From contig JAFWJF010000001.1 of NCBI GenBank assembly GCA_017511715.1, positions 2,892 through 66,891 on the forward strand: a stretch of 64,000 bases of DNA, written 5' to 3'. A program made the translations under genes and the position numbers. This DNA is from Alphaproteobacteria bacterium (GTDB taxonomy: Bacteria; Pseudomonadota; Alphaproteobacteria; Rs-D84). The stretch's first letter is position 1, and every line of letters starts with the position of its first letter. The notes below the pieces were generated by a model. It was not told the origin of the DNA and searched no databases. It was given only the letters and a program-made list of their open reading frames with translations. Below are positions 10,742 to 61,514 of this stretch, one piece after another.

Positions 10742-10880
10742 TATGTGCCGGGTGTTGAATACAGCCTGCCAGAAAAATAATTGGAATTTAGTTTTTTTGT
10801 TGTATTCAACAAAATGCTTGGTAAAATGGTACTTCCGTATTATTTATATATGAGTGTAAAGACGCAAAAAAGGATAAAAT

Positions 10881-18112: not shown

Positions 18113-18118
18113 ACATAA

Positions 18119-18149
18119 CGGCATAGAAAATATGCCGTTTGTTTTTTCT
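18119..18149 (+). terminator. rho-independent terminator
   Basis: cggcatagaaaatatgccg hairpin followed by a T-run. Confidence 0.6.
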
Positions 18150-18594
18150 CTTTTATTTGGTGTTTTTTTCTGTTAAAATAACTCTGTCGGCAAGAGTTTT
18201 GCCGATGGGGTGTCAGAACCCGTTTCGATGCGCGTCCATGATGACGTTAAAACTCCAACCAAATTGGGTTGGAGGGCTGCAAAATATATTGAATATGCAC
18301 ACAATTTCGCATTGAATTGTTCTGAACCTCCAACCGCCTGAAATTTCATGCGGTTTTTTTGGTGTTTGTCCCTTTCGTTGGGGTGTTGTGTGGCGATACA
18401 TACGCAAACATTTGCCACCGTCCCCCGAATAAAAGGGATAAAAAAGTTCTCCTCCGTTGGAGGAGTCCCCGCAGGGAGAGGTGGTCTTGAAAGGATGCCA
18501 GATATTTCAAATTCTTGAAAAAGACCACCCCGCCGTTCCGGCACCCCTCCGCAGGAGGGGAACTGGAAGCAGAGCGAATACAAAAAAAGGACAG

Positions 18595-18742
18595 AGAGAA
18601 TACAAGCAAGGTTTTGGAAACGAAGTGCACCGAAACCGTTGCGGTATACACGCAGACACAAAGTGTCGAGTGAATACGAGAACAAATAATTAGAAAAATC
18701 TTAAAAAATCGAAGTTTACAAGATTTTTTTGATTTTAATTAT
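18595..18742 (+). repeat. tRNA-associated repeat element, copy without tRNA duplication (long variant); likely carries a promoter
   Basis: ggttttggaaacgaagtgcaccgaaaccgtt...cacgcagacacaaagtgtcgagtg matches 32186-32243 and the reverse complement of 2664-2720. The 3' 75 bp matches 38622-38697. A TTTACA-N17-ATTATT promoter-like sequence and a GGAGG RBS lie directly upstream of 18763. Confidence 0.55.
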
Positions 18743-18762
18743 TGTTTATCGAGGAGGAAAAA

Positions 18763-19488
18763 ATGAAAAAGTTTTTGGTATTTATGTCGTTGGTGTTTGT
18801 GTGTGGTATTGCTTCCGCTGAAACAATAAATGTGAATTGGGTTGTTGATGGTGATACTTATGCGCAGACATCTTGCGAAACGGGTGGAAATTTTACTCTG
18901 CCAACAACGCCAACAAAATACGGGTATCATTTTGTTGGTTGGCAACAAGATGGTTCAATTGGTTATTGGGAACAATCGGGAACACCGACACCGGACAATC
19001 CAATCGAACCGATTTTCAGACAGTTTGGAAATACTGTTCTGCGTGCTGTGGGCAGTGGAAACAATTTAATTGCAGATAGTTATGATGTATCAACAGGAAA
19101 AATAACAAGAAGAATCGGGGTCAAGGTACTGGATGGAACGGAGACTTGGGCGACCGACCCGGTTGGAACAGGTGGACATATTAGATTTAATTATAGTTGG
19201 CCTGCTCCCTACAAAAAACCAGGGTTTGATATTTTGACAAATATGTTTCCTACTCAACCGGGCGTTGTTGGCCCAAACGCTACCAGTGCAGTGATAAGTG
19301 GGCACGACACTAACAGGAATATATACATTGCTTTCCCGGCAAACCTTTTAGATGGTGATTTAACCACTACTATAGGGCGCAGAACTGCCTTTAACAACTG
19401 GCTTTCTGCACAATACAACGCAGGTACACCTGTAATCATTTATTACCCATTGGCAACACCTGTTGAAGAAGCCTATAACGCACAATAA
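18763..19488 (+). CDS. secreted protein with a Listeria-Bacteroides-type repeat (Flg_new-like)
   Basis: Signal peptide MKKFLVFMSLVFVCGIASA. Motif NFTLPTTPTKYGYHFVGWQ. Related to parts of the giant protein at 41012. Confidence 0.6.
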   Translation: MKKFLVFMSLVFVCGIASAETINVNWVVDGDTYAQTSCETGGNFTLPTTPTKYGYHFVGWQQDGSIGYWEQSGTPTPDNPIEPIFRQFGNTVLRAVGSGNNLIADSYDVSTGKITRRIGVKVLDGTETWATDPVGTGGHIRFNYSWPAPYKKPGFDILTNMFPTQPGVVGPNATSAVISGHDTNRNIYIAFPANLLDGDLTTTIGRRTAFNNWLSAQYNAGTPVIIYYPLATPVEEAYNAQ

Positions 19489-19490
19489 AC

Positions 19491-20222
19491 ATGAGAAAGA
19501 TTGTTTTTGTTTTTATTGTTGTTTTTAATGCGCCCCTTGCATACGCTGATTTAATTACCGACAATACTTCTAATTATTGTGATTTTATAAGTATGCAGCC
19601 AAATTTATCGGCAGTATTTGAACCGAATGAATACACCTGTGCAAGCGGTTATTATTTACCTGTGAATCACGATGGGTGCGAACCATGCCCAAGTGAACAC
19701 ACATGCAATGGCGGAACTTTTACTTTTGATGAAAATGAATCACAGGGGATAACGTATGGCACAATAATAACATCTGGATATGATTACGGCTGTGACCCAC
19801 ATCTTGCTTTTGGTTTTTATACGGCGGTATTCGAACCAAATTCTCACGAATGTTCATCGGGTTATTATTTGCCGGCAAGCACCGACGAATGTATAATTTG
19901 TCCGCAAAATTCTTATTGTAGTGGTGGTGTGTTCTTTTTTAATGAAACAGAAAATCAGGGTATAAATACATGTGCGCCAGGTTTATTTTCGCCGTCTGGT
20001 TCGTCATCTGATTCACAGTGTGGACATAAATTACACGTTGGTAATGATGTTGTTTATCTGCGTAGTGTAAAAAAGACAGTGCCATCACTTCATGTGAAAA
20101 TTGGCAATGATATTTATTATGGCAATATGACAAAGATACGAACAAAGATGAACACAGATTTAATGCGGTATTTTCGTATCGGTGATTATTATTTGTGTGA
20201 TGATACAACGTGTCCAGAATAA
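19491..20222 (+). CDS. secreted cysteine-rich repeat protein that shares a ~65-aa C-terminal domain with the giant surface protein
   Basis: Signal peptide. Two CxSGYYLPxxxDxCxxCP repeats. C-terminus CGHKLHVGNDVVYLRSVKKTVPSLHVKIGNDIYYGNMT...YYLCDDTTCPE parallels the last 65 aa of the 3533-aa protein. Confidence 0.6.
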   Translation: MRKIVFVFIVVFNAPLAYADLITDNTSNYCDFISMQPNLSAVFEPNEYTCASGYYLPVNHDGCEPCPSEHTCNGGTFTFDENESQGITYGTIITSGYDYGCDPHLAFGFYTAVFEPNSHECSSGYYLPASTDECIICPQNSYCSGGVFFFNETENQGINTCAPGLFSPSGSSSDSQCGHKLHVGNDVVYLRSVKKTVPSLHVKIGNDIYYGNMTKIRTKMNTDLMRYFRIGDYYLCDDTTCPE

Positions 20223-20223
20223 T

Positions 20224-20252
20224 AAAAAAAACGCCCATACAGGCGTTTTTGT
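20224..20252. terminator. bidirectional rho-independent terminator
   Basis: aaaaaaaacgcccatacaggcgttttt. Confidence 0.6.
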
Positions 20253-20253
20253 C

Positions 20254-20886
20254 TTATTTGATACGTTGAGAAGCAGACTTAATAAATGTACGCAGGCGGT
20301 CATCAAATGCGATAGTTTGAGTGTTTGATACAACTATGTGGTCGATGTGTAAGCCTGATGCCCTAAAATCGCTTGCATTACATGTGTTTGTGCGCCGAAC
20401 ATCTATGTCGTTTGGCATGTTTTGTCGTTTTTGTATAATTTCCATGTTGTTTATCATAGGAACAAACCATGCAATACGAAATTTATAAATGTGCGCTGCA
20501 TCGTGGCAGGAAAACCAGTCCATCATTTGACGAACATAACGCGGTTGAATCACATCGTAAGTAAAGTTTTCGCCCCAGTGCGCCGTTATTTCAGATTCTG
20601 GCACACCGTAAAGCCATTTTGGTTGACCCGGTTTCCAAAATTGTTCGTTCACAAACAGTTTGGTTGCGAATTTTTCTTTGTCAAAATAGTTTTCGTCCCT
20701 GAAATAGTATTCGCGACCGTCTTTTTCCCCATCGCGCATTGGGCGTGTTGTTGCAGATTTAAGATTATAAAATGCACCACGTGGTAAAATATTTTTTATG
20801 AAATACGATTTGCCGCTGCCAGATAAGCCCGTGCAAAATAATATTGTTGATTGTTTCTTCATTTTTTGTCCCATAAAAACCCGCAA
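20254..20886 (-). CDS. guanylate kinase-like P-loop protein (divergent)
   Basis: Walker A CTGLSGSGKSY and Gmk-like SATTRPMRDGEKDGREYYF motif. The C-terminal half is not typical Gmk. Confidence 0.45.
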   Translation of the reverse strand: MRVFMGQKMKKQSTILFCTGLSGSGKSYFIKNILPRGAFYNLKSATTRPMRDGEKDGREYYFRDENYFDKEKFATKLFVNEQFWKPGQPKWLYGVPESEITAHWGENFTYDVIQPRYVRQMMDWFSCHDAAHIYKFRIAWFVPMINNMEIIQKRQNMPNDIDVRRTNTCNASDFRASGLHIDHIVVSNTQTIAFDDRLRTFIKSASQRIK

Positions 20887-26432: not shown

Positions 26433-26463
26433 GATTTAAACCACCCGCAAGGGTGGTTTTTTA
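26433..26463. terminator. bidirectional terminator
   Basis: aaaccacccgcaagggtggtttttt. Confidence 0.6.
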
Positions 26464-28200
26464 TACCTGTTTTTCTTCGGGTGTGTGCCCAGGTTGAAAG
26501 ATTTCAACGTCGCGCGTCATCGCCAGGAATTTTTTTGCACGCGATTGCACCAATTCTTCAATTGGAATTTCTTTCAATTCCATCAATGCATCTGATACAG
26601 ATTTTGCCAACAATTCCATTGTAGTTTGCCAATCTTTGTGTGCGCCGTCTGCCGGTTCGTCGATGATTTTATCAATCACATTTAATGATGCCATATCACG
26701 CGCAGTCAATTTTAATGCGGTTGCCGCCTGTGCCTTGAATTTGTTGTCTTTCCACAAAATACTGGCACAAGATTCGGGTGCAATAACTGAATAAATCGAA
26801 TTTTCCAACATCATTACGCGGTCGCCTGTTCCAATCGCGATTGCACCGCCAGAGCCACCTTCGCCGACATTAACAGCAACATAAGGCGTTCTTGCCCGCA
26901 GTCCCATTGCGATTGTTGATGCCACCGCCTGAGATTGACCGCGTTCTTCCGCCGCGCCACCGGCAAATGCACCAGCAGTGTCAAACAGCGAAATAATCGG
27001 CAAATCAAATTTTTCAGCCAATTTCATCAAACGTTGTGCCTTTCTGTATCCTTCTGGATTAGGCATGCCGAATCTGTGTTTTTGGCGTGTTTCAATGGTG
27101 CGCCCTTTTTCTTGTCCAATAATAACAGCCGGCGTTCCATACCAATAACCTATTCCGCCACACATGGCTGCGTCTTCGCCAAAACACCTGTCCCCGGCAA
27201 GGTATGTCCATTTGTCCACAATGCCGTTCACATAGTCCAAAAAATGCGGTCTGTTTTCATTTCGTGCCAAAAGTACCTTGTCATATTCAGGCGTTTTGCC
27301 CGCATCACGCGATTTCTTTGGCGCGTCATATTTAGGTGTTTTTACATCAATAACTTTGGGTTCGGCAGGTTGTTTTGTTAATACAGTTAATACGCGTTCC
27401 AGTGTTTCTTTTAATTCTGAACGATTAACAACTATGTCTACCATACCATGTTCATACAAATAATCTGCAGTCTGGAAATTAGACGGCAATTTTTCGTGTA
27501 TATTTTGTTCAATTATGCGACGACCAGCAAAGCCAATACGCGCGCCCTTTTCGGCAATATGGATATCGCCCAACATCGCAAACGAAGCCGTCACACCACC
27601 AAATGTTGGGTCTGTTAAAATAACTATGTACGGCAATTTATTTTCATGCAGTTTATTTACTGCGACAGTTGTGCGTGCCATTTGCATCAACGACAAAATG
27701 TTTTCTTGCATACGCGCGCCGCCACTGCATGTGACCATAACGAAAGGTTGCTTTAATTCAATCGCGTGTTCAATACTGGCAATAATCGCATCACCTGCAG
27801 CACGCCCCATAGACCCCATCATAAAGTCCCCGTTCATCACGCATACCGTCGAATTTATACCCCCTATTTTGCCATCGGCGGTTGATATAGAATCATTAGT
27901 TCCTGCATCTTCACGCGCTTCTTTTAATCTTTCTTTGTATGGTATTCTGTCGACAAAATTCAGCGGGTCATCTGTCACAATCGGTAAATCAAATTTTTGC
28001 CAATTCACATCATCAAACAATAAATCAAATCTTTGTTTGGGTGACATTATAAACGCACGTCCGCACTTTGGACAAACGTATTGATTGTTTTTATAGTCTT
28101 TATAAAACACTAAACGACCACACGCTTCGCATTTTATCCACATCAATTTGCGCACGCGTTCGTATTTGTCACGATTATGATTTGTAATACCCCTTGACAT
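26461..28200 (-). CDS. accD-accA: acetyl-CoA carboxylase carboxyltransferase, fused beta (AccD) and alpha (AccA) subunits
   Basis: N-terminus has the AccD zinc ribbon CEACGRLVFYKDY...CPKCG and carboxyltransferase fold. C-terminal half has AccA motifs (PNPEGYRKAQRLMKLAEKFDLPIISLFDTAGAFAG...VGEGGSGGAIA). One 579-aa ORF. Confidence 0.85.
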   Translation of the reverse strand: MSRGITNHNRDKYERVRKLMWIKCEACGRLVFYKDYKNNQYVCPKCGRAFIMSPKQRFDLLFDDVNWQKFDLPIVTDDPLNFVDRIPYKERLKEAREDAGTNDSISTADGKIGGINSTVCVMNGDFMMGSMGRAAGDAIIASIEHAIELKQPFVMVTCSGGARMQENILSLMQMARTTVAVNKLHENKLPYIVILTDPTFGGVTASFAMLGDIHIAEKGARIGFAGRRIIEQNIHEKLPSNFQTADYLYEHGMVDIVVNRSELKETLERVLTVLTKQPAEPKVIDVKTPKYDAPKKSRDAGKTPEYDKVLLARNENRPHFLDYVNGIVDKWTYLAGDRCFGEDAAMCGGIGYWYGTPAVIIGQEKGRTIETRQKHRFGMPNPEGYRKAQRLMKLAEKFDLPIISLFDTAGAFAGGAAEERGQSQAVASTIAMGLRARTPYVAVNVGEGGSGGAIAIGTGDRVMMLENSIYSVIAPESCASILWKDNKFKAQAATALKLTARDMASLNVIDKIIDEPADGAHKDWQTTMELLAKSVSDALMELKEIPIEELVQSRAKKFLAMTRDVEIFQPGHTPEEKQV

Positions 28201-29713: not shown

Positions 29714-31141
29714 CTATTCTCTACCTTGGTACACAGTGTTCGAATAACCAAAACTGTGTTTTAATTTTTCAACCAATTTATTATAGTCCGGTTTTTTTGT
29801 TAATTTTTCACGCCATGCATTATACTCTGCAGATAAACGGGTTGTGTGTTTGCGAAAACTATCAGATAAATTCTTGTCAAAATCTGCCATAGTATTTATC
29901 TTAGACAATCTCTTTAATTCATCTGTTGCCCTTTTTTGCCATTTTTTTGCTTCTTCGATTTCAGTATTTTTACGTGCTTCATCGGGAAAACGCCAAGAAG
30001 GTATTTCTTCCTCTAGTCTACGCGTAGCGTTTTCTAAATCAAATTGGGCATTTACCCTTTCTGCGGACACGAGTTCCATAAATTGTGTTTCATACAATTT
30101 CATGAAATCAATCGGCGTATTGTTCATAATGCTGCGTTTTATTTCTGAAACAAATATCTGGGGTAACCCAGACGGTGTAGAAATGCTATCAACCAAAGAG
30201 CCTATGGTTGCAGCATTCATTATGCCACCATCTTTTTTGGTTAAAGATTCACCTTTTAGATACATGTAAACGCATTCGGACAAATTATCCATCTGGCAGT
30301 ATAACGAATAAGAATGTCCTTTGTTTGATGTGGCGCCTTTAATCCCCGCGGCAGTTGCGGCTTCGTATATAGCTACAACAGGTTCGCTGCCATCGCTGGT
30401 CGCAACTAATTCATGAAAATGCATCTTTTCCATCGCCATATGAACAACTGCATCGCGCAAAAAGTGTGACAAAATATCGAAACGACTTTCTTCAAACAGC
30501 CCACGCAAAAAAGCCTTTTTGTCTTTGGCAGAATCGTACATTTTCTTTACGCGTTCATCGAACCTAAATTCTTCTTCTACTTCATAATCTTTCAAATCAC
30601 CGTTTTTGTATTTTTCATATGTTGCACGATCGCTATCGTTCAGCATCTTTAATATTGTTTCAACTTCCTCTTCGGTATAATTATCGCGTTTGTATGTTGC
30701 GCCATGTTCATCAATTTTGAACAGAACATCATTAGATGGGCGAATAACAAAAGTGCTTTTTGGCAAGACCAATCCACGCTCTGGATTTGTTGACCAGTAT
30801 GTATCAACCGCGGCAATTTCTGCGGGATTACCGTTTTCTTTGACTATGTCTTTATAGGGGGACAAAATTACAATCGGCATATCATCCCAAGAACCCGATC
30901 CATGTGCTTTTACAACATGGTTTAATGTTGTATGAACAGTAGCACGCGGAAGGTCAAAATTCGTAGCCATTCCCGTTGATTGAATAAACATCAAACCGTC
31001 CGAATTTTTATGCGGCATATATTTTGTAGCATGAACGACACACCAATTATTCATATCAGACATATATTCTTCATCAGCATAATTTTTTTGTAATTTCTCT
31101 ACTGCCTGTCTAAAAAGCTCTATTCTATTCATAAAAATCAC
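29714..31141 (-). CDS. hypothetical protein (475 aa), lineage-specific
   Basis: Long intact ORF with no recognised motifs. Ends just before tRNA-Ser(CGA). Confidence 0.5.
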   Translation of the reverse strand: MIFMNRIELFRQAVEKLQKNYADEEYMSDMNNWCVVHATKYMPHKNSDGLMFIQSTGMATNFDLPRATVHTTLNHVVKAHGSGSWDDMPIVILSPYKDIVKENGNPAEIAAVDTYWSTNPERGLVLPKSTFVIRPSNDVLFKIDEHGATYKRDNYTEEEVETILKMLNDSDRATYEKYKNGDLKDYEVEEEFRFDERVKKMYDSAKDKKAFLRGLFEESRFDILSHFLRDAVVHMAMEKMHFHELVATSDGSEPVVAIYEAATAAGIKGATSNKGHSYSLYCQMDNLSECVYMYLKGESLTKKDGGIMNAATIGSLVDSISTPSGLPQIFVSEIKRSIMNNTPIDFMKLYETQFMELVSAERVNAQFDLENATRRLEEEIPSWRFPDEARKNTEIEEAKKWQKRATDELKRLSKINTMADFDKNLSDSFRKHTTRLSAEYNAWREKLTKKPDYNKLVEKLKHSFGYSNTVYQGRE

Positions 31142-31263
31142 CTTTCTTTGATAAGAATTATATCAAAAATCACGCAAAAAAGCAATCCGAATAACCGGTA
31201 AAAGAATTAACGCAAAAGCATTTGATTTTTTATCGAAAACAGTTATAATACCAACACACAGAC

Positions 31264-31354
31264 GGAGATGTGGCAGAGCTGGTTGAATGCGCGTGACTCG
31301 AAATCACGTATACGGGCAACCGTATCGGGGGTTCGAACCCCTCCATCTCCGCCA
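31264..31354 (+). tRNA. tRNA-Ser (anticodon CGA)
   Basis: ggagatgtggcagagctggttgaatgcgcgtgactCGAaatcacgtatacgggcaaccgtatcgggggttcgaacccctccatctccgcca. Long variable arm, CCA encoded. Confidence 0.85.
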
Positions 31355-31369
31355 GAAAAAAGGTTGTTT

Positions 31370-31948
31370 ATGAACAAAAATTTGCACGATATTATTTTTT
31401 CAATATACGAATATTTTGGCAAGGATAGAGAAAAACTTGATGAGGCGCGGTCCGAATTTTACCGTATTGGCGAAGCCAACCCACGTGTAGCCCTTATGTT
31501 ATATCGAGCATTATTGACAGATTATATAAACCAAAAAAAGAAAAAAATTGCTTTAGCCGATACAATGCGAATATATTTGATAGTTTCTACTAACGCAGAC
31601 TTTTATCTGATACACCCTATTGATGCATTGTCCATGCCAGAAGCAGATAAGTTCTATGAAACATATCACATAAGATATCCGCGTTCATCAACCATATCAA
31701 AAATCTTAATTAACATGAACAGATTTGATTCTGACAAACCAAAAGGCAAACTAGATTTTAAGAACAAATTGCGCGTAAAATATACAGTAAAAGATTCAAA
31801 CTATCCACACTCGTTCAATAAAAGGATGTTTTTACTGAATAAAAATCGCATCAGCAAAGATACCGTATATAAGAAATTAAGCGGATTAAACAAATTTTTC
31901 ATAGCACAAGCCTATAAAAAATACTTGAAAAAACAAAAATCTTTGTAA
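31370..31948 (+). CDS. hypothetical protein inside the tRNA-Ser islet
   Basis: 192-aa ORF (MNKNLHDIIF...) lying between the tRNA and the duplicated tRNA 3' end. Confidence 0.4.
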   Translation: MNKNLHDIIFSIYEYFGKDREKLDEARSEFYRIGEANPRVALMLYRALLTDYINQKKKKIALADTMRIYLIVSTNADFYLIHPIDALSMPEADKFYETYHIRYPRSSTISKILINMNRFDSDKPKGKLDFKNKLRVKYTVKDSNYPHSFNKRMFLLNKNRISKDTVYKKLSGLNKFFIAQAYKKYLKKQKSL

Positions 31949-31962
31949 AAAGAAATCACACA

Positions 31963-32108
31963 TCAAAATCATATGAATTAACAGATTTTACAATCGCATC
32001 AACCAATTTGTTTTGATGAGAATCTGATTTTAATAATTTTTCTTCGTTTTTGTTGGACAAATGCCCCAGTTCTATCAATGCACCCGGTACAGTCGAACGC
32101 AATACTGG
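31963..32108. repeat. direct duplicate of the 3' end of amiC (~145 bp, one mismatch), partner at 33898-34042
   Basis: tcaaaatcatatgaattaacagattttacaatcgcatcaacc...cgaacgcaatactg present twice. Confidence 0.85.
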
Positions 32109-32258
32109 TCATTTTTTATTTATCGTGTATGGGTATGGGGTTAGACGCTACAACGAAGTTGTTGGGTTCGACAAGCAGTAGGTTTTGGAAGCAAGGCGCA
32201 CCAAAACCGTTACGATTGCCCCGCAGGCGAAAGCCGAGGAAATCCTCCATCTCCGCCA
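32109..32258 (+). mobile_element. tRNA-3'-end-associated repeat element (short variant) ending in a duplicated tRNA-Ser(CGA) 3' end
   Basis: Core caacgaagttgttgggttcgacaagcagtaggttttggaagcaaggcgcaccaaaaccgttacgattgcc, about 85% identical to the reverse complement of 2664-2760. The final 15 nt cctccatctccgcca equal 31340-31354. Confidence 0.7.
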
Positions 32259-32288
32259 TAAATAAAAAAAGACACAAACCGGTCTTTT

Positions 32289-33875
32289 TTATCTGCTGTT
32301 GTCAGGAATTGTCTTGTCCTGTGTTTTTGTAGTTGTTTTTTTTAACAGTTTTTTTACTGCATTTTTCAATTTTTCTTTTTTGCTTTCCCCTTGCATTTTC
32401 AATTTCAGTTCGTTTGCGAAATCTTTAAACTTTTCATGCAAAACAATTGATACTTTGTGAGGTTCTGGTTTCACAAAAATATTATCACTCCATAAAAAAT
32501 CACTCCCTATTCCTTTAACATTTGGCAGATTTATCGACTTTAAGTTTGTATTTTCAGTTAAAAATTCATCGCCAATATCTTCTACTTTCGGTAAACTTAT
32601 TGATGTTAACATTTTATTGTAATACAAGAATCTATTACCAATTTTTTCAACTTTTGGCATGTTTATTGATGTTAATATTTCGTTATTTTCCAAGAAATAG
32701 TCGCCAATTCTTTTTACAGATGGCAAATCTATTGATGTCAATGCGTTATTAGAATTTAAGAAATGCATACCGATTTGTTCGACCTTTGGTAGCGCTATTG
32801 ATGATAACATCTTGTTCTTCACTAAGAAATCACAACCAATTTTCTTAACATTTGGTAAATTTATTGTTGTTAAACTTTTGTTGTGTTCTAAAAAAACGTC
32901 TTTAATTTTTTCTGTTGTAGCTAAATCTAATTCTATAATCTGCCCTTTGAATATTACAATACGATTGCCGTCCAGTGTGGATAACGTCGTTTCTTTTGTT
33001 ATTTTGTTATATGTTCTGGTAACTTTTTTCCCGTTAAATGCCAGATAAAAAACATCAAATGTTGTGCCGTAATCAATTGGTGAAGTTATTGTTTTATCTT
33101 TATCATTATAAATCATGCCATCAAACATGATTTCGCGGTCTTTGTTCAATCGTGTAATTGTGCCACCAGTAAAATAATAATCGTCACCGATGTAAATGTT
33201 GTCTCTTTCAAAACTGTACCAGACCAACTGGTCATTAACCCAAACATAGTTATTTGGCATTTTAATATCAGAAACATTGAATTCTACATCAAAGAATTTT
33301 CGCAATGAATTTGTAAGTCCCGGGATGATATTATCTGGGTTATTACCGAATGTTGCATCTGGATTGTTTACTGTATGGTTATAACGATTTTTAATAGATA
33401 TAAATCCACCACCCTTTGCAATTTGAATTGATATAACAGATGTTCCGTATTCGTCTTCGCGTTCTGGATTTGCGGATGGTTTTATTTTGTCTGCGCCACG
33501 TTTTACCGCATGAATTATATAAAAGTTTTCATGCCTATTGGGGTCACTGAAAGTACATAATTCTTCGCCGGGGCGATAATATTTTTTTATTGAATCTTTT
33601 TGTTTTTTACTTTCAACTATAAACGCGTCATAGCCCGCTTCATCTAACAATTCTAACGGCTTTTTATCTGTGGTATATTGGGATGCAGACATTATTTTAC
33701 ATTTAGACCGGATTGTTGGTATCAATCTTTCTAGATCTTCTAATTGTGTAAATTCTAATATGTGTTCAATATTTGGAACATCCAGCAATTCGGCATTGCG
33801 AAGAATCTTGGCAAAACGTTCACCGCGATGCTTTTTAATATTTTTAAAAACTTCGGCTGTATCTATTTCTTTCAT
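32289..33875 (-). CDS. BspA-type leucine-rich repeat protein with unknown N-terminal domain
   Basis: C-terminal tandem repeats of about 23 aa (LPNVKKIGCDFLVKNKMLSSIALPKVEQIGMHFL...). No signal peptide. Confidence 0.7.
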   Translation of the reverse strand: MKEIDTAEVFKNIKKHRGERFAKILRNAELLDVPNIEHILEFTQLEDLERLIPTIRSKCKIMSASQYTTDKKPLELLDEAGYDAFIVESKKQKDSIKKYYRPGEELCTFSDPNRHENFYIIHAVKRGADKIKPSANPEREDEYGTSVISIQIAKGGGFISIKNRYNHTVNNPDATFGNNPDNIIPGLTNSLRKFFDVEFNVSDIKMPNNYVWVNDQLVWYSFERDNIYIGDDYYFTGGTITRLNKDREIMFDGMIYNDKDKTITSPIDYGTTFDVFYLAFNGKKVTRTYNKITKETTLSTLDGNRIVIFKGQIIELDLATTEKIKDVFLEHNKSLTTINLPNVKKIGCDFLVKNKMLSSIALPKVEQIGMHFLNSNNALTSIDLPSVKRIGDYFLENNEILTSINMPKVEKIGNRFLYYNKMLTSISLPKVEDIGDEFLTENTNLKSINLPNVKGIGSDFLWSDNIFVKPEPHKVSIVLHEKFKDFANELKLKMQGESKKEKLKNAVKKLLKKTTTKTQDKTIPDNSR

Positions 33876-33890
33876 TTTGTTATTCTCTTT

Positions 33891-35084
33891 TTAAACGTCA
33901 AAATCATATGAATTAACAGATTTTACAATCGCATCAACCAATTTGTTTTGATGAGAATCTGATTTTAATAATTTTTCTTCGTTTTTGTTGGACAAATGCC
34001 CCAGTTCTATCAACGCACCCGGTACAGTCGAACGCAATACTGCAAATGGCGCATGACGGACAGATGGGCCTTTTTGTTGTTCTATGCTTGCGCGATTAAA
34101 CGATTTAGCACATCCATTTGCGTATTCTTCGCTTAATTCTGCAACAGCACGTTGTTGCAGTGAAGACAAGGCAACACGAATATCTTTGGAAAATTGTTCA
34201 AATCCGTTAACATCTATTTTATCCGCAGCATTTTCTGAATCTGCCAATTTTTGCGCTTCTTCGTCTGATGCTTTTTCAGACAAAGTATAAATTGAAAAGC
34301 CCTTCATGTCACGACTTGGGTTTGCGTTTGCATGCAAAGAAATGAATAAATCGGCGTGTTTCTTTTCGGCAAATTCTGCGCGTTCTGCCAATTTAAGAAA
34401 AGTATCATTAGAACGAGTCAGGTATGTTTTGTATCCGTTTGCTTCCAGTTTGCTTTTCAGTTTTTTTGCGACAGACAAAACAACCGTTTTTTCTTGTGTG
34501 CCACCACGCCCTGTACATCCCGGGTCTTTGCCACCATGTCCAGGATCAATAACTATGACACGTTTCGCAGAATTATTATTTGTTGTTGATTTTGTTTCTG
34601 ACTTTGTTGCTGTTTTTGCAGTCGTTGTTGATACGGGGGCTGATACGTCTATTCCGCGCCCTGTCCCGGCAGCAAAATCAATAACCAACCGATAATCGTT
34701 ATCGCCATTTGGTTCCAGAATCATTATTTGTTTTTTATCAATCGCGTCTATAAGCCCAGATAATGCACACAACACCTGTAATTTCGTACCATCTTGAATT
34801 TGGGTGACGCGCTTTATCATTGTGTCGTTTGCCAGTTTTGGCTGTATACTGCTGCTGCCCGAAGTGTTTGACAGATTTACAATTAACTGTTTGTCACCAT
34901 AAGATAAATCATATACTGGACGTGAAGAAGTTTCGATTACTAATCGTGTCTTGCCGCCTGGTTGCAGACCTGTTCTTATTGAACGCACCGCATTCGGTGC
35001 AGAAAAAGCAACACGTGGTGCAATCCCAACGACTAACGCACTGAAACTAACTGTCCTTAAAAGTTGTCTGCGACTTAATTTCAT
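33891..35084 (-). CDS. amiC: N-acetylmuramoyl-L-alanine amidase (AmiC-like; Tat signal, AMIN and Amidase_3 domains)
   Basis: Tat motif SRRQLLRTVSF and amidase core VIVIDPGHGGKDPG...LFISLHANA. The ORF could start at 35132. Confidence 0.9.
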   Translation of the reverse strand: MKLSRRQLLRTVSFSALVVGIAPRVAFSAPNAVRSIRTGLQPGGKTRLVIETSSRPVYDLSYGDKQLIVNLSNTSGSSSIQPKLANDTMIKRVTQIQDGTKLQVLCALSGLIDAIDKKQIMILEPNGDNDYRLVIDFAAGTGRGIDVSAPVSTTTAKTATKSETKSTTNNNSAKRVIVIDPGHGGKDPGCTGRGGTQEKTVVLSVAKKLKSKLEANGYKTYLTRSNDTFLKLAERAEFAEKKHADLFISLHANANPSRDMKGFSIYTLSEKASDEEAQKLADSENAADKIDVNGFEQFSKDIRVALSSLQQRAVAELSEEYANGCAKSFNRASIEQQKGPSVRHAPFAVLRSTVPGALIELGHLSNKNEEKLLKSDSHQNKLVDAIVKSVNSYDFDV

Positions 35085-35162
35085 GAGAATCATTATATCA
35101 AAAAAAAGACATGGTTTCAAGAAAAGTTGCAATAAAAAAAACCGCCACTGTGGCGGTTTGAT

Positions 35163-36532: not shown

Positions 36533-37604
36533 ATGGTGATTAACAATGAAGTTTTAAATCAAATTGCCGACGACATTTCTGCCGTAAGGGGGTTTCTTTG
36601 ACCCCGAAAAAATTCAATCTGAAATCAACAAATTAAACGATATTTCTAATAAGCCTGATTTATGGGACAAACCGGACGAAGCCCGCAGTGTTTTGCAGAA
36701 AAAATCAAATTTAGAAAAACAGTTGGCTGAATTAAATAGTTTAGAAAACGAATACAAAAATTTGGTTGATTTGTACGATTTGTCGCCAGGAGATCCAGAT
36801 ATCAACAAAGCAGTATCAGAATTGGCGCAATCTGCACACAAAGCAAAATTTATCACTCTATTTAGCGACCCAATGGACAACAACGGCGCGTTTTTATTTA
36901 TTCAGTCCGGTGCGGGTGGTACCGAAGCGCAAGATTGGGCACAAATGTTGTCGCGCATGTACACGCGTTGGTGCGAAAGACATGGTTTTGCTATCGAAGT
37001 TGTCGAAGAACACCCCGGCGATGTCGCAGGTATAAAAAGTATTACGTTCAGAATATCTGGCGAGCGTGCATTTGGTTGGCTGAAAAACGAAATTGGCGTG
37101 CACAGGTTGGTTCGCATATCACCGTTTAACGCAAACGGAAAACGCCAAACCAGTTTTGCTTCGGTTGATGTATGGCCTGATGTTGACGATTCAATAGAAA
37201 TTGAAATAAACGAAAAAGATTTGCGCATTGATACATATCGTGCCAGCGGCGCAGGCGGGCAGCATGTTAACAAGACAGATTCCGCGGTTCGCATAACTCA
37301 TATTCCTACAAATACTGTGGTTACTTGTCAGAACGAACGCAGTCAAATTCAGAACAAAGATATGGCGATGAAAATGTTGCGTTCTAAATTGTACGAACTT
37401 GAAATGCAGAAACGTGCCGCAGAAGAGGATGCAGCAAAAGCCGCCCAAAAGAAAATTGAATGGGGCAGTCAAATAAGAAACTATGTCCTTTATCCATATC
37501 AGTTGGTCAAAGATGTGCGAACAAACGTGGAAAAGACAGATTCTGCCGCGGTTTTAGACGGTGATCTGGATGATTTTATGTTGGCAATGTTGCAACAAGA
37601 GTAA
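36533..37604 (+). CDS. prfB: peptide chain release factor 2 with programmed +1 ribosomal frameshift
   Basis: Frame 0 reads MVINNEVLNQIADDISAVRGFL, then an in-frame TGA at 36599. The +1 frame continues DPEKIQSEINK... into the main ORF, which carries the SPF and GGQ (RASGAGGQHVNKTDSAVRI) motifs. Confidence 0.85.
36585..36602 (+). promoter_or_regulatory. prfB +1 frameshift site (internal SD-like AGGGGG, CTT TGA C slippery context)
   Basis: taagggggtttctttgac parallels the E. coli AGGGGGUAUCUUUGAC site. Confidence 0.8.
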
Positions 37605-38535: not shown

Positions 38536-38539
38536 TGAA

Positions 38540-38572
38540 TAAAAAAAGACCCAGCAGGGTCTGTTTTTTATT
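38540..38572 (+). terminator. rho-independent terminator after tRNA-Arg
   Basis: aaaaaaagacccagcagggtctgtttttt. Confidence 0.6.
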
Positions 38573-38575
38573 CAC

Positions 38576-38712
38576 TTATGAAGCACCGCGGGACAGGTCA
38601 GAGCGAAGCGCATGACCAATCCGCAGATAAACAATTAAGAAAATATTAAAAAATCGACGTTCACGAGATTTTTTTGATTTTATTTATTGTTTATCAAGGG
38701 CTGGGTGCGCCA
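38576..38712 (+). mobile_element. tRNA-associated repeat element (long variant) ending in a duplicated tRNA-Arg 3' end
   Basis: 38622-38697 is about 85% identical to 18667-18742. The upstream part is a diverged version of the core (aagcgca..acc.a.ccgcag). It ends with gctgggtgcgcca, equal to 38523-38535. Confidence 0.6.
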
Positions 38713-41011: not shown

Positions 41012-44000
41012 ATGGCGGGAATCAAGCCTTTTTATAACATGTTAAAGCGTTTAATATTTGCAATATTCGTAGTGTTTACTGCAAATTCTGCATTTGCGGC
41101 GTGTGCTAGCAATCAAATTGATGTAAATGGTGATGGAACCAAATGTGAGGATGTGAAATTCACATTAGACCTTTCCAGAAGTTCAAACATAACGGTTTTC
41201 AATTTCTTTATGTCTGCCAAAGGAACATTTTATGTCGATTGCGGCAATGGCGGAACATTGACCAGCAATTCTGCCACTAATTACCCGGTATCGGGCAAAA
41301 CAGTTAACCGTACCTATGGAACGGGTAATGTAAGGTACTCTTGTACATGGGCCAATGGCAGCAAGACACAAACAATTAGGTTTGGTGGGGTTGCAGAAGG
41401 ATATAGCACCAATACAAGCACCGCCGCAATACGTTTTAATTATAATGCAACACAAGCGGCATATATAACATCAGTTTCTGGTAATTTGTCCGCTATGTTC
41501 CCGTATATTACAAACAATGCACAAAGTGGTGCACAACCAAGATTTTATATGACTTTTGATAAAGCGACAAACCTGAAAAGTATCCCCGATACATTGTTTG
41601 CAAATTACACAACACCGGCAACAAATATGTTTCATTCTACGTTTAACAATTCAGGATTGACATCAATACCTAGCAATTTGTTTTCCACCATATCTGGCGC
41701 AGCAGAAGGTCTGTTTTCTAGCACATTTAATGGATGTACCGGCTTAACATCAATACCTGGCAATTTGTTTTCCACCATATCTGGCGCAGCAAACAGCTTG
41801 TTCTATGGCACATTTCAGAATTGTACCGGCTTAACATCAATACCTAGCAATTTGTTTTCCGGGGTGTCTGGCGGGGCAAGTTCTATGTTTTTTTTCACGT
41901 TTAAAGGATGTACCGGCTTAACATCAATACCTGGCAATCTGTTTTCCACCATATCTGGCGCAGCAAACAGCTTGTTCTATGGCACATTTAGTGGATGTAC
42001 CGGCTTGACATCAATACCTAGCAATTTGTTTTCCACCATATCTGGCGCAGCAGACGGTCTGTTTTCTAACACATTTAATGGATGTACCGGCTTAACATCA
42101 ATACCTGGCAATCTGTTTTCCGGGGTGTCTGGCGGGGCAAGTTCTATGTTTTCTTACACGTTTAATGATTGCAGTTCGATATCTGCAATACCGGCAGGAC
42201 TATTTTCCGGTGTAAACCAGGCGGCAACAGGTTTGTTCATGAATGCATTTTCTGGTTCTGGGGTAAGTGGTTATATACCACCGACCACATTTTCCGGGTT
42301 GATTTCGGCGGGCAGCCCACAAAGTTCAGATATGTGGCTAGATACATTTTCATACACGAATTTAACAGCGACTTGTCCACAGGGAACAACGCAGTATATG
42401 ACAGGATACGAAGGTGGCACTAATGGTCCTACATGGAATGGGATGGTTTCTTGTACGCCAAATTCGACCACTGCAATTGCAGTAACTTTGGACAGTGCAG
42501 GCGCGACCACAAATGCCACACCTTCGACAATATATCTTCGATACGAGGATCGTTGGTACAGTAATTCTGCCCTTTCTGTTCAGATAAGTTCGCTTAACAC
42601 CATTCCATCAAAAACGGGATATATGTTCGGCGGTTTTTACACTCAACCAAATGGTTCCGGAATACAAATTATCAATTCAAATGGTTACATCTTGCAAACC
42701 ATGGAAGCAATCACGTTTACAACCACACCGACAACCGTGTATGCTTATTGGATAGAACCAAAGTTCACATTAACAACATCATCGACCAACAGTTTTCAAT
42801 TTAAACTATCTGCCGCTGGTACATTCTATGTAGACTGCGGAAACGGTGGAACGTTAAGTGGAACCGGGGCGTCCGGAAACACAATTACGCGTGCCGACAC
42901 AACCGAAGCGACATATACATGTTCATGGACCAACAGTGCAACACGAACAATCAGATTCAGCGGTGCCGCAACCGGGTATAATTCGTCTTATGGTGTTGCA
43001 GCAATAAAGTTTAATATGACAGATGCTGCCACTGATGCAAACGCAGCATTGTTAACGGGTATGTCTGGCACACTGGGGTCAATATTCGGAACAGTTGCCA
43101 CCGCCAGCACAGGCTCTGTTCAACCAGCATTTAATAAGACATTTTATGGTGCATCAAACCTTAATGCGTCAATACCGTCAAACTTTTTTGCGGGCGTTCA
43201 TGGTGCACCACGCGGGGGAATGTTTCAACAAACCTTTTCTGGATGCAGCAGTTTGACCGGCTCTATCCCAGAAACCCTATTCTGTGAAAACACGACCAAT
43301 CCAAGTGCATCAAACTGTATCTATGGAGCACCAATTGGGGCAATGTTTGAACATACATTCCTTGGTTGTAGTGGTTTGACGGGTTCTATCCCAGAAAAAC
43401 TGTTTGTGGGTATCCATGGCGCGCCTGCAAGTTATATGTTTTCTCAGACATTTAATGGATGTAGTGGTTTGACGGGTTCTATCCCAGAAAAACTATTCTG
43501 TCAAAACACAACCAGCCCATCTGCATCAAACTGTATCTATGGCGCACCGGCATCATCTATGTTTGCCTTGACATTTTATGGATGTAGTGGATTAACTGGC
43601 TCTATTCCAGAAAAACTGTTCGTTGGTATCCATGGTGCACCAGCAAATAATATGTTTCAACAAACATTCTATAATTGTAGTGGTTTAACTGGCTCTATTC
43701 CAGAAAAACTATTCTGTCAAAACACAACCAGTCCATCTACATCAAACTGTATCTATGGCGCGCCGGCAAGAGCTATGTTTTTTCACACTTTTTCTGGTTG
43801 TACAAATTTAACTGGTTTGATACCACAAAACCTTTTCAAAGGGATATACGGCGCGCCGGCAGAAAATATGTTTAATGGTACATTTAGGAATGACAACAAA
43901 TTGACAGGAATAACCGACGGCACAACTACCACAACCTATGTTCCATCAACATTCCTTAGCGCGATTAACAACACAAGCGCAACAACACCAGCAACAGGAA

Positions 44001-47000
44001 TGTTTACTGGTACGGGGCTTGCATCGTCTTGTCCGACGTGGGCAGCCGCCGCAACACCGGTATGGGCAACTGATGCTGGTAAGCCATGGTGCGAACCAGA
44101 TATAAAATTCACATTAAACACATTAGCGACTAACAGTTTTCAATTTAAACTATCTGCCGCTGGTACATTCTATGTAGACTGCGGAAATGGCGGAAGGTTA
44201 AGTGTGGTAAACGGTAACGGAACAGTTTCTGGGAATACGATAACAAAAACAGGTACTTCGTGGGGGACATTTGAATGTTCTTGGGATGATACCGAACCAC
44301 AAACACTTCGATTTGGTGGTGCAGCATCAGGGTACACTGCAAGCCAATCAGGCGGTGCAATAAGATTTAATGTTTCTGATACAAACCAAGATGATGATAC
44401 AAACGCACCAAAGATCACCGGAATATCCGGGTCATTGGGTGCAATATTTGGAACCATAGATGGCACGGTTTCCCCAACAGGCGCGGAATCACAACCAAGA
44501 TTCTATGGAACATTTTGGGCTGCATCCAACCTTGCTGGTTCAATACCAGACGAGCTTTTCTATGGCATACATGGCACACCAATATCATATATGTTTAACC
44601 GTACTTTCCGTGGTTGTAGCAGTTTAACTGGAAAAATACCTGAAACATTATTCTGTCAAAACACAAGCAACCCAAATGCATCAAACTGTATTTATGGCGC
44701 ACCGACACAACAGATGTTTTACATGACTTTTCACGGATGTAGCGGTTTGACAGGAAATTCTTCAACCGGATATGCCATTCCTGCAAAATTATTTGCAGGT
44801 ATTCGTGGTGATCCATCTTCAGCATCGAGTGTGTTTGGTTATACATTTTCCGGTTGTAGTGGTTTAAATGGGCAAATACCTGAAACATTATTCTGTCAAA
44901 ACCCGAACAGCCCCAGTGCATCAAACTGTATCTATGGTGCGCCGGCATCAAATATGTTTTCATTTACATTCCAAGGATGCACTGGTTTGACAGGTGACGG
45001 TATACATGCCGTTCCAGTAAAGTTGTTTGCAGGTCTCCATGGCGCGCCGGCACCAAAAATGTTTCAATCTACTTTTACTGGCGACACAGGATTGACAGGG
45101 GAAATTCCACCTGCGCTATTCTGTGGTGGTAATACGAATAATCTGAGTAATCCATCTGCCTCAAACTGTATCTATGGCACCCCGGCAACAGAAATGTTTA
45201 ATAGTACGTTTTATAATACTAGAATAACACATGTAGATAAAAATATGTTTGCGGGGATATCCGGTACTTCTGCGGAAAAGATGTTCTATCGTACATTTAA
45301 AAGTTGTAGTTCATTGTCGTACATAAATGATACCTTTAACACAAAAGCGACAACTTACATTCCGTCAGATTTCCTTGGTGGCATTACTGATGGATCCGTG
45401 ACAAATGACGCAACAGAAATGTTCACAGGTACGGGACTCACATCACCTTGTCCGACGGGGACAGCCACCGCAACACCGGCGTGGGCAACGGATGCTGCCA
45501 AACCATGGTGTGCACCCAACACATATAGCATTACATATGATATGAATGGTGGAACAAACTATTCCGGCGCACCTACAACATATGTTTATGGGACAAGTAC
45601 AACAATTAATGGCGCACCAACAAAATCAGGCTATATATTCAAAGGATGGACTGGTTCTAATGGTTCAACACCACAACCAACCGTGACGATTGGTGCAAGT
45701 GCCACCGGGGCAAAATCTTACACTGCGAACTGGGAAACGGCAAAATTCACATTAACCACATCAGGAATGAGCGATTTCAGCTTCAAGCTTTCGCCAAAGG
45801 GAACATTCTATGTCGATTGCGGAAATGGTGGAACGTTAAGTGGTCAAAGCGCGTCCGGCAGTACAGTTTCCGTCAACACAATCACACGTACAACCACAAC
45901 CGCAACAACATATACTTGTAGCTGGGCCAGTAGTGCTGGAAACAAAACAATATCTTTTGGCGGGTCTGCCACAAATACCACAACAACATATAACTCAGAT
46001 ACGAACGTACCAGCAATACATTTTTTGGAAAGTAGTAATGCAGACTCAATCAAAAGCGTATCTGGTAATTTGTCCGCGATGTTCCCGTACATCACATCAA
46101 ATGCACAAAGTGGTGCTCAACCAAGGTTTAACAGAACATTTTATGATGCAACACACTTGACCAGTGTTCCCGATACATTATTCGCAAATTATACCACACC
46201 CGCAACATATATGTTTAGTAATACATTTGCAAGTTCTGGGTTAACATCGATACCGGCGGGACTGTTTTCCCGCATAACCGGTGCAGCAACCGGTTTGTTC
46301 GAGGGTACATTTAGCGGTGCGCGCTTAACATCAGTGCCGGCGGGGCTATTTGCCGGGATATCTGGTGTGGCAGACAGTTTGTTTAATAGCACATTTACTG
46401 GCACACCAATAACATCTATACCAGAGAATTTGTTTGCCGGGGTATCGGGGTCTGCATCTGGCGTGTTTTCTTACGCTTTTTATCGTTGCGCTAGCCTGGC
46501 CACCATAACAAATGGGCAAACAAGTACGACCTATGTTCCGGGAACGTTCCTTAGTGATGTTACTGGCAATGACAATTACATTGGTGCCGACATGTTTGGC
46601 ATGACAGACTTGGCTGACACCTGTCCATATGGTATGGGCGATACAACACCGGCATGGGCAAGTGATGCTGGTAAACCATGGTGTTCTCCCAATACATATA
46701 CAATAACCTATTCTGCCGGTCAAGGTGGCGTTGGTGCAAACCAAACGGAAAACGTTGTGTTTGGCACCACATTTACCACAAAATCTGCAAATACGTTTAG
46801 TAAACCACACGCTACATTTACAGGCTGGGATACTCTTGAATACTCTTCAGCCTGGACACAACCAGATACAACATATACTTATGATTTGCCGTCAGATATT
46901 ACGATTGCAGCACAATGGACATGTGATTCTGGATACACATTAAATAACAGCACCGGAAATTGCGATGCCAACAGTATCACATGTGATCCAGGTTTTTATC

Positions 47001-61335: not shown

Positions 61336-61348
61336 GGTGCGAGCAAAG
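61333..61348. repeat. duplicated 3' end of tRNA-Gly(GCC) (tttggtgcgagcaaag), partner at 61436-61451
   Basis: 16-bp exact direct repeat flanking an 87-bp insert. Confidence 0.75.
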
Positions 61349-61437
61349 TACTTCGGCAACTAGCGTTGCCTCGCCTCGCAACTCGCCCCTTTGCCGCAAA
61401 AATCAAAAACCGCCCTAACGGACGGTTTTAAAATTTT

Positions 61438-61514
61438 TGGTGCGAGCAAAGGGGCTCGAACCCTCGACCTCAACCTTGGCAAGGTTGCGCTCTAGCCAAC
61501 TGAGCTACGCTCGC
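61438..61514 (-). tRNA. tRNA-Gly (anticodon GCC)
   Basis: Reverse complement gcgagcgtagctcagttggctagagcgcaaccttGCCaaggttgaggtcgagggttcgagcccctttgctcgcacca. Confidence 0.85.

Follow-up and report, generated by a model that had tools for sequence, protein, structure and literature searches.

A small gene-less structured repeat family at tRNA 3′ ends and a probable secondary rearrangement behind tRNA-Ser(cga) in an Alphaproteobacteria bacterium

tRNA genes are classic landing sites for large genomic islands moved by integrases, and a second tRNA 3′ end some distance downstream of an intact tRNA gene raises the question whether the DNA in between was once carried in. Such a configuration is found behind tRNA-Ser(cga) in a 64,000-nucleotide stretch from an Alphaproteobacteria bacterium (GTDB Rs-D84; assembly GCA_017511715.1, contig JAFWJF010000001.1, positions 2,892 to 66,891 of the forward strand), hereafter called the window, whose own numbering is used below. 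The tRNA gene, an open reading frame (ORF) of 192 codons (ORF192), a fragment of amiC, a repeat-element copy and a 15-nt duplicate of the tRNA end follow one another between 31264 and 32258. A preliminary description took this for the largest surviving copy of a family of tRNA-linked islets and for the best place to look for what these elements once carried. Our comparisons lead to a different answer: the best explanation, which we hold to be probable, is a gene-less tRNA-end element combined with a secondary rearrangement at the Ser locus, ORF192 being of chromosome type.

The tRNA-Ser(cga) gene is intact (31264-31354, + strand; ARAGORN; Rfam tRNA, 56.3 bits). Its last 15 nt, which comprise the T-stem 3′ strand, the acceptor 3′ strand and GCCA (31340-31354, +; T1), read CCTCCATCTCCGCCA and occur exactly twice in the 64 kb with up to two mismatches allowed. 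The second occurrence lies at 32244-32258 (+; T2), precisely where it had been reported, and is an attR-like direct repeat of T1. Shuffled sequences give 0.03 expected recurrences, and none of 100 shuffles reaches two. That the match and the similarity flanking it are due to chance or to an assembly artefact is vanishingly improbable; the shortness of the repeat, and nothing else, speaks for this explanation, which is refuted by the shuffles, by the same architecture at three other tRNA genes of the window and in dozens of independent assemblies, and by the identical locus having been assembled from two other samples (L050 and L051, 98% identity). As the preliminary description had argued, the match is not accidental, and T2 is the displaced old chromosomal end of tRNA-Ser.

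Four of the five tRNA genes in the window carry an islet, tRNA-Ser(gct) alone being without a downstream duplicate, and dozens of copies in related genomes bear out the proposed link of the family to tRNAs. The duplicated tRNA end is 53 nt long at tRNA-Gly(ccc), where it includes the terminator, 13 nt at tRNA-Arg(ccg) and 16 nt at tRNA-Gly(gcc), so that the pattern noted earlier at three further tRNAs is real. The intact copy behind tRNA-Gly(ccc) (2645-2852, −; core match 2656-2741) serves as reference; it consists of the tRNA 3′ end, a terminator, a mirror, a hairpin, GGGTTCGA, the core, the duplicated 3′ end and a terminator. More generally, the first half of a canonical copy presents the tRNA, an element-borne trailer with terminator, and a mirror of trailer, acceptor 3′ strand and T-arm, and the second half presents a small hairpin, GG(G)TTCGA, a core of ~75 nt, the stretch from (A)ATCC.. 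to CCA and a second terminator. Intact family members measure 125-190 nt and are gene-less, with no ORF of any kind in the intact units. A covariance model of the core finds three full cores in the window, at tRNA-Gly(ccc) (98 bits), at tRNA-Ser (82 bits) and at 18593-18679 (80 bits), the last with no tRNA nearby; the next match scores 11 bits. The copy behind tRNA-Arg(ccg) (38536-38712, +), absent from the relative L003 introduced below, has an internal deletion and a nested 82-nt MITE (miniature inverted-repeat transposable element), and the decayed copy behind tRNA-Gly(gcc) (61340-61462, −) has kept the mirror and a GTTGC..GCAAC hairpin and has lost most of its core.

At the Ser locus, 32108-32258 is one copy of this small, gene-less, palindrome-bearing structured family at tRNA 3′ ends. 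The repeat core had previously been delimited as 32130-32243; its end exactly at the 15-mer holds, and its start has to be moved to 32108, directly after the amiC fragment. The surviving right palindrome arm (32108-32146, +), identified partly by analogy with intact copies, contains in order the 3′ half of a terminator with its T-run (gtcatttttt), a mirror of ATAAATAAAAAA.GAC, the trailer found after T2, and the mirror of the tRNA-Ser 3′ region, ATGGGTATGGGGTTAGAC. It is followed by the small family hairpin ACAAC-GAA-GTTGT (32150-32162, +), by GGGTTCGA (32164-32171, +), which represents the T-stem 5′ strand and the first half of the T-loop directly left of the core, and by the conserved core itself (32172-32243, +; covariance model, 81.8 bits). 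Arm B of the core is formed by GGTTTTGG...CCAAAACC with an outer stem, and arm C by CCC-GCA-GGC-GAAA-GCC-GA-GG, after which AAAT leads into the displaced remainder of the T-loop. The left palindrome arm, that is, the element-borne tRNA end, the trailer and the terminator 5′ half, is missing and is replaced at tRNA-Ser by 753 bp of an ORF192-type allele. The locus thus does not hold an exceptionally large element; the copy is ordinary in size, with its left arm lost, and the 753 bp represent a secondary rearrangement.

Both ORF192 (31370-31948, +) and the amiC fragment do lie between the repeats, as had been described. Whether they are the residual cargo of a decayed genomic island integrated at the tRNA and bounded by the two 15-mers can be judged from the syntenic relatives L003 and L052, which were recovered through protein look-ups. 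L003 is colinear with the window over ~23 kb at ~81-85% nucleotide identity. It contains, in this order, an MGMT-like gene, tRNA-Ser(cga), an ORF192 homologue and amiC, the last three contiguous and the stop codons of the last two 4 bases apart, and its segments 9827-10053 and 10461-10808 align to window positions 31355-31955 (+), so that the tRNA trailer with ORF192 is orthologous to the stretch directly following tRNA-Ser in L003. No leucine-rich-repeat (LRR) gene, no second tRNA-end 15-mer and no core occur at the L003 Ser locus, and the covariance model finds no core in L003. The amiC fragment (amiC′; 31956-32107, −, with the 148 matching nt at 31960-32107) comprises the final 148 nt of amiC, stop codon included, and converges on ORF192. 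Its junction with ORF192 resembles the one in L003, and the fragment is therefore an amiC 3′ end that has kept its ancestral place. Both ORF192 and amiC′ are DNA of chromosome type, present in a relative without any element.

The comparison at this locus, which the preliminary description had recommended, thereby contradicts its cargo interpretation. A decayed island is very improbable even though tRNA 3′-end direct repeats bracket the interval as they do in integrase-borne islands (Islander, PMC4383910), the ORF192 family is sparse, patchy and without a Pfam hit, and the genes downstream of tRNA-Ser(cga) vary among relatives: L003 has the same trailer/ORF192/amiC junction without the second repeat or the core, amiC′ is a native 3′ end in its native place, the intact family members of 125-190 nt carry no genes, and there is no integrase in or near the locus.

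The second relative, L052, is nearer to the window than L003 (85% compared with 81% nucleotide identity), the ~85% applying to prfB, amiC and the LRR gene. In L052, amiC is followed by the LRR gene and a terminator, and then by TGGCG, which is the tRNA-Ser end read as its reverse complement; the contig stops there. The LRR gene is present in L052 and absent from L003; in the window this LRR_5 (BspA-type) gene of 528 aa lies directly downstream of amiC (32289-33875, −), and the T2-terminator-LRR junction recurs in L052. An A/T-flanked hairpin, aaaaaaagac..ggtctttttt (32259-32290), is common to T2 and the convergent LRR gene; a strict terminator scan does not call it. The window reads T1, trailer, ORF192 and amiC′, then element remnant, T2, terminator, LRR gene and amiC, and is thus the L003-type and L052-type arrangements fused in series. 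The intact amiC (Amidase_3; 33891-35132, −) contains the duplicated segment as its last 148 nt (33895-34042), which differs from amiC′ at one of 148 positions, whereas the amiC ends of L003 and L052 are ~20% different from both. Because of this contrast, the duplication of the amiC end is recent and derives from closely related DNA. The joint 32107|32108 coincides with the apex of the palindrome, at the boundary between loop and 3′ stem of the lost terminator, and shows the microhomology ac(t/c)g|gtc.

A plausible course of events can be proposed from these arrangements. A chromosome with the order tRNA-Ser, terminator, LRR gene, amiC probably once had an intact copy behind its tRNA-Ser. The presumed precursor form is seen in L053 at another serine tRNA: behind tRNA-Ser(tga) come a full unit, the displaced end and a terminator, with an LRR paralogue in convergent orientation. 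The palindrome may then have broken at its apex and been joined, at ac(t/c)g|gtc, to the alternative allele tRNA-Ser, ORF192, amiC. A closely related strain would have been the donor of this DNA, given the single difference in 148 positions between the two amiC ends. The product would be T1, ORF192, amiC′, half palindrome, core, T2, LRR gene and amiC. From this history, based on the two relatives, ORF192 is therefore chromosome-type DNA and not surviving cargo.

The same order could have arisen by aberrant excision. An element residing in an ORF192-type chromosome would have left imprecisely, from the apex to 148 nt inside amiC, carrying core, tRNA end, ORF192 and amiC′, and would have re-integrated at the tRNA-Ser T-loop of an LRR-type chromosome; ORF192 would then be a passenger, but one captured from a chromosome and not original cargo. 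This scheme predicts the exact observed order with precise junctions at T1 and at core|T2, both backbone types exist among relatives, and tandem arrays suggest repeated integration. We nevertheless judge it unlikely, as neither a circular form nor an excision product was seen, a single homology-facilitated illegitimate recombination yields the same structure, and no other copy among ~50 has captured genes between tRNA and mirror.

The LRR genes deserve separate mention. The paralogue in L053 (10211-10526), 71% identical to that of the window, converges on the tRNA-Ser(tga) bearing the intact unit; the layout resembles that at tRNA-Ser(cga) in the window, yet the genomic neighbourhood is different, and LRR genes may accompany serine-tRNA flanks beyond chance. 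The window LRR protein (32289-33875) belongs to a very large family, with more than 3600 homologues at E < 1e-10; the named hits are proteins from Alphaproteobacteria metagenome-assembled genomes (MAGs) that have the N-terminal region in common and vary in repeat number.

ORF192 is a real gene of a small, lineage-specific family, and its presence is independent of the element. The homology search suggested earlier retrieved true homologues with conserved motifs, including FYxxGKxNPxVA and YPK/R, although they are few (2 hits among 5.8 billion proteins; 8 representatives among 1.84 billion) and no function was obtained. The protein has no Pfam domain, an exact-sequence lookup returned no record, and its mostly helical AlphaFold model, of modest confidence (predicted local distance difference test score, 66), has no fold match in the PDB by Foldseek (best E = 1.3). 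A distant family member, P0126, adjoins an ABC permease gene, and no link to a tRNA-Ser gene was called in its neighbourhood. The gene directly after tRNA-Ser(cga) is ORF192 in the window and in L003, an MGMT-like gene in L026 (7734-8000) and an unrelated ORF in L071 (− strand, near 13400); this tRNA flank is a hotspot of rearrangement. On the upstream side, the tRNA has a promoter-like TTGATT-16-TATAAT (31222-31249, +) that agrees with the consensus at 10 of 12 positions, a consensus match being its sole basis, and between tRNA-Ser and ORF192 a terminator scan finds none. A 475-aa ORF without Pfam match (29714-31141, −), located between the MGMT-like gene and this promoter, is absent from L003 and present in L050.

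What the element itself is can be read from its structure. Across 21 distinct copies, 93.4% of the cells in the core stems are paired, compared with 27-40% when the partners are slid; ten pairs change on both sides, and 0 of 500 shuffles reach the observed covariation. Compensated core variants occur also in L053, L055 and L056, and the loop of arm B is conserved. The small hairpin likewise covaries between copies (GTTGC/GCAAC, GCAAC/GTTGC, GCACTT/AAGTGC). In 12 of 16 loci examined, the sequence from the resident T-stem through the terminator to the mirror forms one long hairpin, and in the other four no resident T-arm was located; this tRNA-trailer palindrome is ~90 nt in length and has the terminator loop as its apex. 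DNA-fold z-scores are −7.9 for Gly(ccc), −8.1 for Arg(ccg), −6.9 for Gly(gcc) and −5.2 for L053, and at the unoccupied tRNA-Ser(gct) there are T-arm and terminator hairpins only, each separate. Where the two trailers of a copy are unlike, the mirror agrees with the resident one directly behind the tRNA. Target-type sequence is therefore present three times, as direct, inverted and direct copies, the third being split by the core in its T-loop. A four-way junction recurs in the folds of whole units, with the tRNA-type end forming part of its closing stem.

These folds might instead belong to a host small-RNA gene, encoding a cloverleaf-like RNA of 125-150 nt with an acceptor/T-stem mimic that ends in NCCA and undergoes tRNA-like processing. 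The recurrent four-way junction with a tRNA-type end as the 3′ strand of its closing stem, the covariation of arms B and C, the conserved arm B loop and the terminator after every unit would all suit such a gene. It is improbable, however, in view of the terminator and the lack of room for a promoter ahead of each unit, the polymorphic presence of units, their tandem arrays and truncated or decayed forms, the lack of strand bias in the wobble pairs and the missing Rfam match. Pairing of the mirror with the resident tRNA end is just as good, which makes the structure a palindrome of the DNA. No promoter-like site was found ahead of the Ser unit; Rfam 15 at the gathering threshold detects only tRNAs in the whole window, and at E up to 5 nothing over the core in 31200-32400.

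A degenerate copy of the neighbouring tRNA that had been invaded by the core was also considered as the origin of the unit. As a general model it was rejected, since the small hairpin is the same at unrelated tRNAs; in the Met copies, furthermore, the T-stem 5′ strand is not retained.

The distribution of the family bears on its mobility. The window itself matches a scaffold of 68.9 kb in an ENA metagenome assembly. A 19-base pattern from the arm B hairpin, used as a probe, retrieved ~25 true copies from species-representative genomes and, from JGI metagenomes, 26 loci. Every true copy belongs to a rumen or gut Alphaproteobacteria MAG (Candidatus Enterousia and relatives); several of the repeat-bearing MAGs come from the rumen or reticulum of sheep, yak and buffalo, and several are titled Candidatus Enterousia. 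Copies lie behind at least ten tRNA species according to ARAGORN, among them Ser(gga), Ser(gct), Ser(tga), Ser(cga), Gln(ctg), Met(cat), Arg(ccg), Arg(acg), Gly(ccc) and Gly(gcc), and tRNA-linked copies invariably point the same way as the tRNA. The window has a copy at both tRNA-Arg(ccg) and tRNA-Ser(cga), two sites that are empty in the colinear L003. Whole units form tandem arrays with periods of 173, 190 and 334 nt (L055 1367-1568, L058 2819-3037, L059 129-347 and L018 101-458), and L027 (823-920) contains a core-only array with a 74-nt period, in which the right end of one core is joined to the left end of the next. Decay by internal deletion is seen at the Arg and Gly(gcc) sites of the window and in L054 and L062. 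L033 (5815-6170, −) is the converse form, with the 5′ instead of the 3′ part of a tRNA duplicated: positions 1-58 of tRNA-Arg(ccg) are fused to the core, followed by a MITE, a promoter-like stretch and an intact tRNA-Arg.

The MITE of 82 nt occurs twice in the window (18673-18754 and 38618-38699) and in L013, L032, L033, L041, L060, L072 and L073. It has terminal inverted repeats of 10-12 bp, GATAAACAAT..ATTGTTTATC, and an internal palindrome of A/T runs. At tRNA-Arg it splits the displaced tail into AATCCGC and GCTGGGTGCGCCA, and at 18673-18754 it provides the sequence just upstream of a gene's ribosome-binding site. A larger, gene-carrying form of the element composed of core, 82-nt segment and genes was considered and rejected, the segment being an independent MITE nested in the displaced tail. 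The 2.4 kb around the MITE copy at 18673-18754 (window 18100-20511), absent from L003, contain a cluster of GC-rich hairpins (~18400-18590), the full core copy at 18593-18679, the MITE and two genes for secreted proteins, one with a Listeria-Bacteroides repeat (18763-19488) and one rich in cysteine (19491-20222).

An enzyme that could move the element was sought around its copies. The 135 ORFs located within 3.5 kb of copies at 48 loci yielded 25 listed families, each represented in at least two ORFs and all of them housekeeping, with no recombinase among those listed. Pfam searches found no recombinase among the ORFs of the Ser locus and no recurring one among ORFs near core copies in the window and L032, and neither intI nor attI is present in any of the 48 loci. 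The core gives only unrelated coding hits in IMG/VR and no match in phage and plasmid collections; an autonomous relative supplying a recombinase was found neither in these collections nor in the genome loci. Full-text literature searches found no description of such an element, and the family appears to be undescribed. We file it as a variant of tRNA-targeting non-autonomous integrative elements. The element would insert by recombining inside the T-arm or 3′ end of its target tRNA gene, presumably with catalysis in trans by an enzyme it does not encode, and would restore the tRNA in the way of tRNA-targeting islands. Folding of its single strand can pair the mirror with the tRNA-type end, in a manner that resembles folded-single-strand recombination sites.

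How closely this matches known systems differs from class to class. Integrase-moved islands and prophages that target tRNA genes (Islander concept, PMC4383910) share with the element the insertion at the tRNA 3′ end, the restoration of the gene, a displaced fragment marking the far end and a junction in the T-loop region, the attB of mycobacteriophage Ms6 likewise lying in the T-loop of a tRNA-Ala (PMC1762012). A direct repeat with a regenerated tRNA and pairs of occupied and empty sites were found; an integrase beside an att site was found neither among the ORFs of the Ser locus nor among the listed families near copies. Unlike these islands and prophages, the element is 125-190 nt long, has neither an integrase nor any other gene, uses at least ten tRNA species, and carries a mirror of tRNA end and trailer as well as a structured core that abuts the displaced fragment.

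Cis-mobilizable elements (CIMEs) are att-flanked remnants without recombination genes that are mobilized in trans (PMC5704250; PMC7563491). The present element is equally non-autonomous, has attL- and attR-like bounds and no recombination or transfer genes, is sometimes arranged in tandem and would obtain its recombinase from elsewhere. CIMEs, however, are kilobase-long deletion derivatives of integrative and conjugative or integrative and mobilizable elements and are tied to one site, whereas the element is a uniform structured unit of less than 200 nt at many tRNAs, for which no such parent is known.

The attP hairpin of the CTX phage, used by XerCD, is a folded-single-strand site, and the integron attC is a recombination site used in the same state (PMC5027507). 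With these the element has in common an imperfect palindrome, a conserved structure with variable sequence, and small non-autonomous units in short tandem arrays, and a folded single-stranded circle would, on insertion, produce just this direct-inverted-direct layout. TCGAACC / GGTTCGA agrees by inspection with the attC R boxes (RYYYAAC...GTTRRRY) at 6 of 7 positions, a partial similarity. In contrast to attC and CTX attP, no IntI, attI or dif-like site was found, and the 75-nt core at the crossover has no counterpart; its palindrome notwithstanding, the element does not qualify as an integron cassette or attC site.

Repetitive extragenic palindromic (REP) sequences, bacterial interspersed mosaic elements (BIMEs), Rickettsia palindromic elements and MITEs (examples in PMC5896051 and PMC6382973) form a further class for comparison. 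Like these, the element is short, GC-rich relative to the genome, hairpin-forming, multi-copy, non-coding and lineage-restricted, and some copies lie off tRNAs among other hairpin repeats. It differs in that its unit ends are not inverted repeats of one another, so that it lacks terminal inverted repeats, and in that a short target duplication is missing, the duplicated segment consisting of 13-53 nt of the tRNA end. It is, in addition, strictly oriented and positioned with respect to tRNA genes, and its target is duplicated in both orientations.

Tandem inversion duplications arise by template switching at short palindromes. They resemble the element in their direct-inverted-direct segments and in junctions located at hairpins, here the terminator loop and the small hairpin. 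The small hairpin at the second junction and the core, however, have one and the same sequence at unrelated tRNAs, and neither can therefore be a local product of spontaneous duplication.

With some reserve, we also considered an alternative that we think possible and not likely: a new kind of non-autonomous element which either has a folded single-strand attachment site or copies its target in both orientations at each insertion. In the former case, the mirror would pair with the tRNA-type arm and so mimic a tRNA gene's duplex 3′ end, the core forming a bulge at T-loop position 58|59, and a trans-acting enzyme would exchange strands with the real tRNA gene at 58|59; in the latter, each insertion would itself copy target sequence in both orientations. 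Either version would explain why one core family, found at ten or more tRNAs, always matches the local one, and neither corresponds to a described mechanism of tRNA-gene targeting.

Several observations weigh against our preferred reading of a tRNA-end element with a secondary rearrangement at the Ser locus. Cores also lie away from tRNAs among GC-rich hairpins, at 18593-18679 in the window and in L066, L068, L070, L074 and L076, so that linkage to tRNAs may be just one setting in which a more general repeat occurs. We saw neither a recombinase nor a circular form nor a restored empty site, and hence the insertion mechanism is one that we infer. The mirror of target-type sequence is foreign to the att sites of classical integrases. 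Counts of G-U against A-C pairs reveal no strand bias in the wobble pairs and so do not indicate the folding strand, and the specificity of the mirror for the acceptor strand of its own tRNA is weakly significant (p = 0.019), the long palindrome with resident tRNA end and trailer being the clearer result. At the Ser locus, the order of events depends on two relatives, one of whose contigs (L052) stops at the critical point, and aberrant excision capturing ORF192 and amiC′ would give the same final structure. Finally, with the genes downstream of tRNA-Ser(cga) varying, ORF192 may be accessory DNA of older origin.

With the gene-less element as the preferred reading, a unit of less than 200 nt does what large islands do, at most of the tRNAs examined, in gut Alphaproteobacteria with small genomes, supplying the tRNA with a new end and adding a terminator, a mirror image of end and terminator, and a structured core that is conserved. 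If it is indeed mobile, it would imply a trans-acting enzyme that recognizes the T-arm/acceptor end of tRNA genes, possibly on folded single strands, and would offer a compact natural case of one element retargeting among many tRNAs. The units place long palindromes and repeats behind tRNA genes, with assembly breaks as in L052 and rearrangements as at tRNA-Ser as consequences. Genes between tRNA-end repeats should accordingly not be taken for island cargo without syntenic comparison.

Three further features of the window were noted. A CTTTGAC motif at 36596-36602 precedes the start of the long prfB frame (36693-37604) by ~90 nt. That frame aligns to the release factor 2 profile only from profile position 47; motif and late profile start fit the usual programmed +1 frameshift. 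A single ORF of 3533 aa (41012-51613, +) is built from several internal repeat families, with periods of 87 and 216 nt and larger, includes Cys-rich CxxC-type units and has a GC content above that of its surroundings. The carboxyltransferase subunits AccD and AccA are encoded as one fused protein of 579 aa (26461-28200, −), and the accD-accA fusion is also present in L003.

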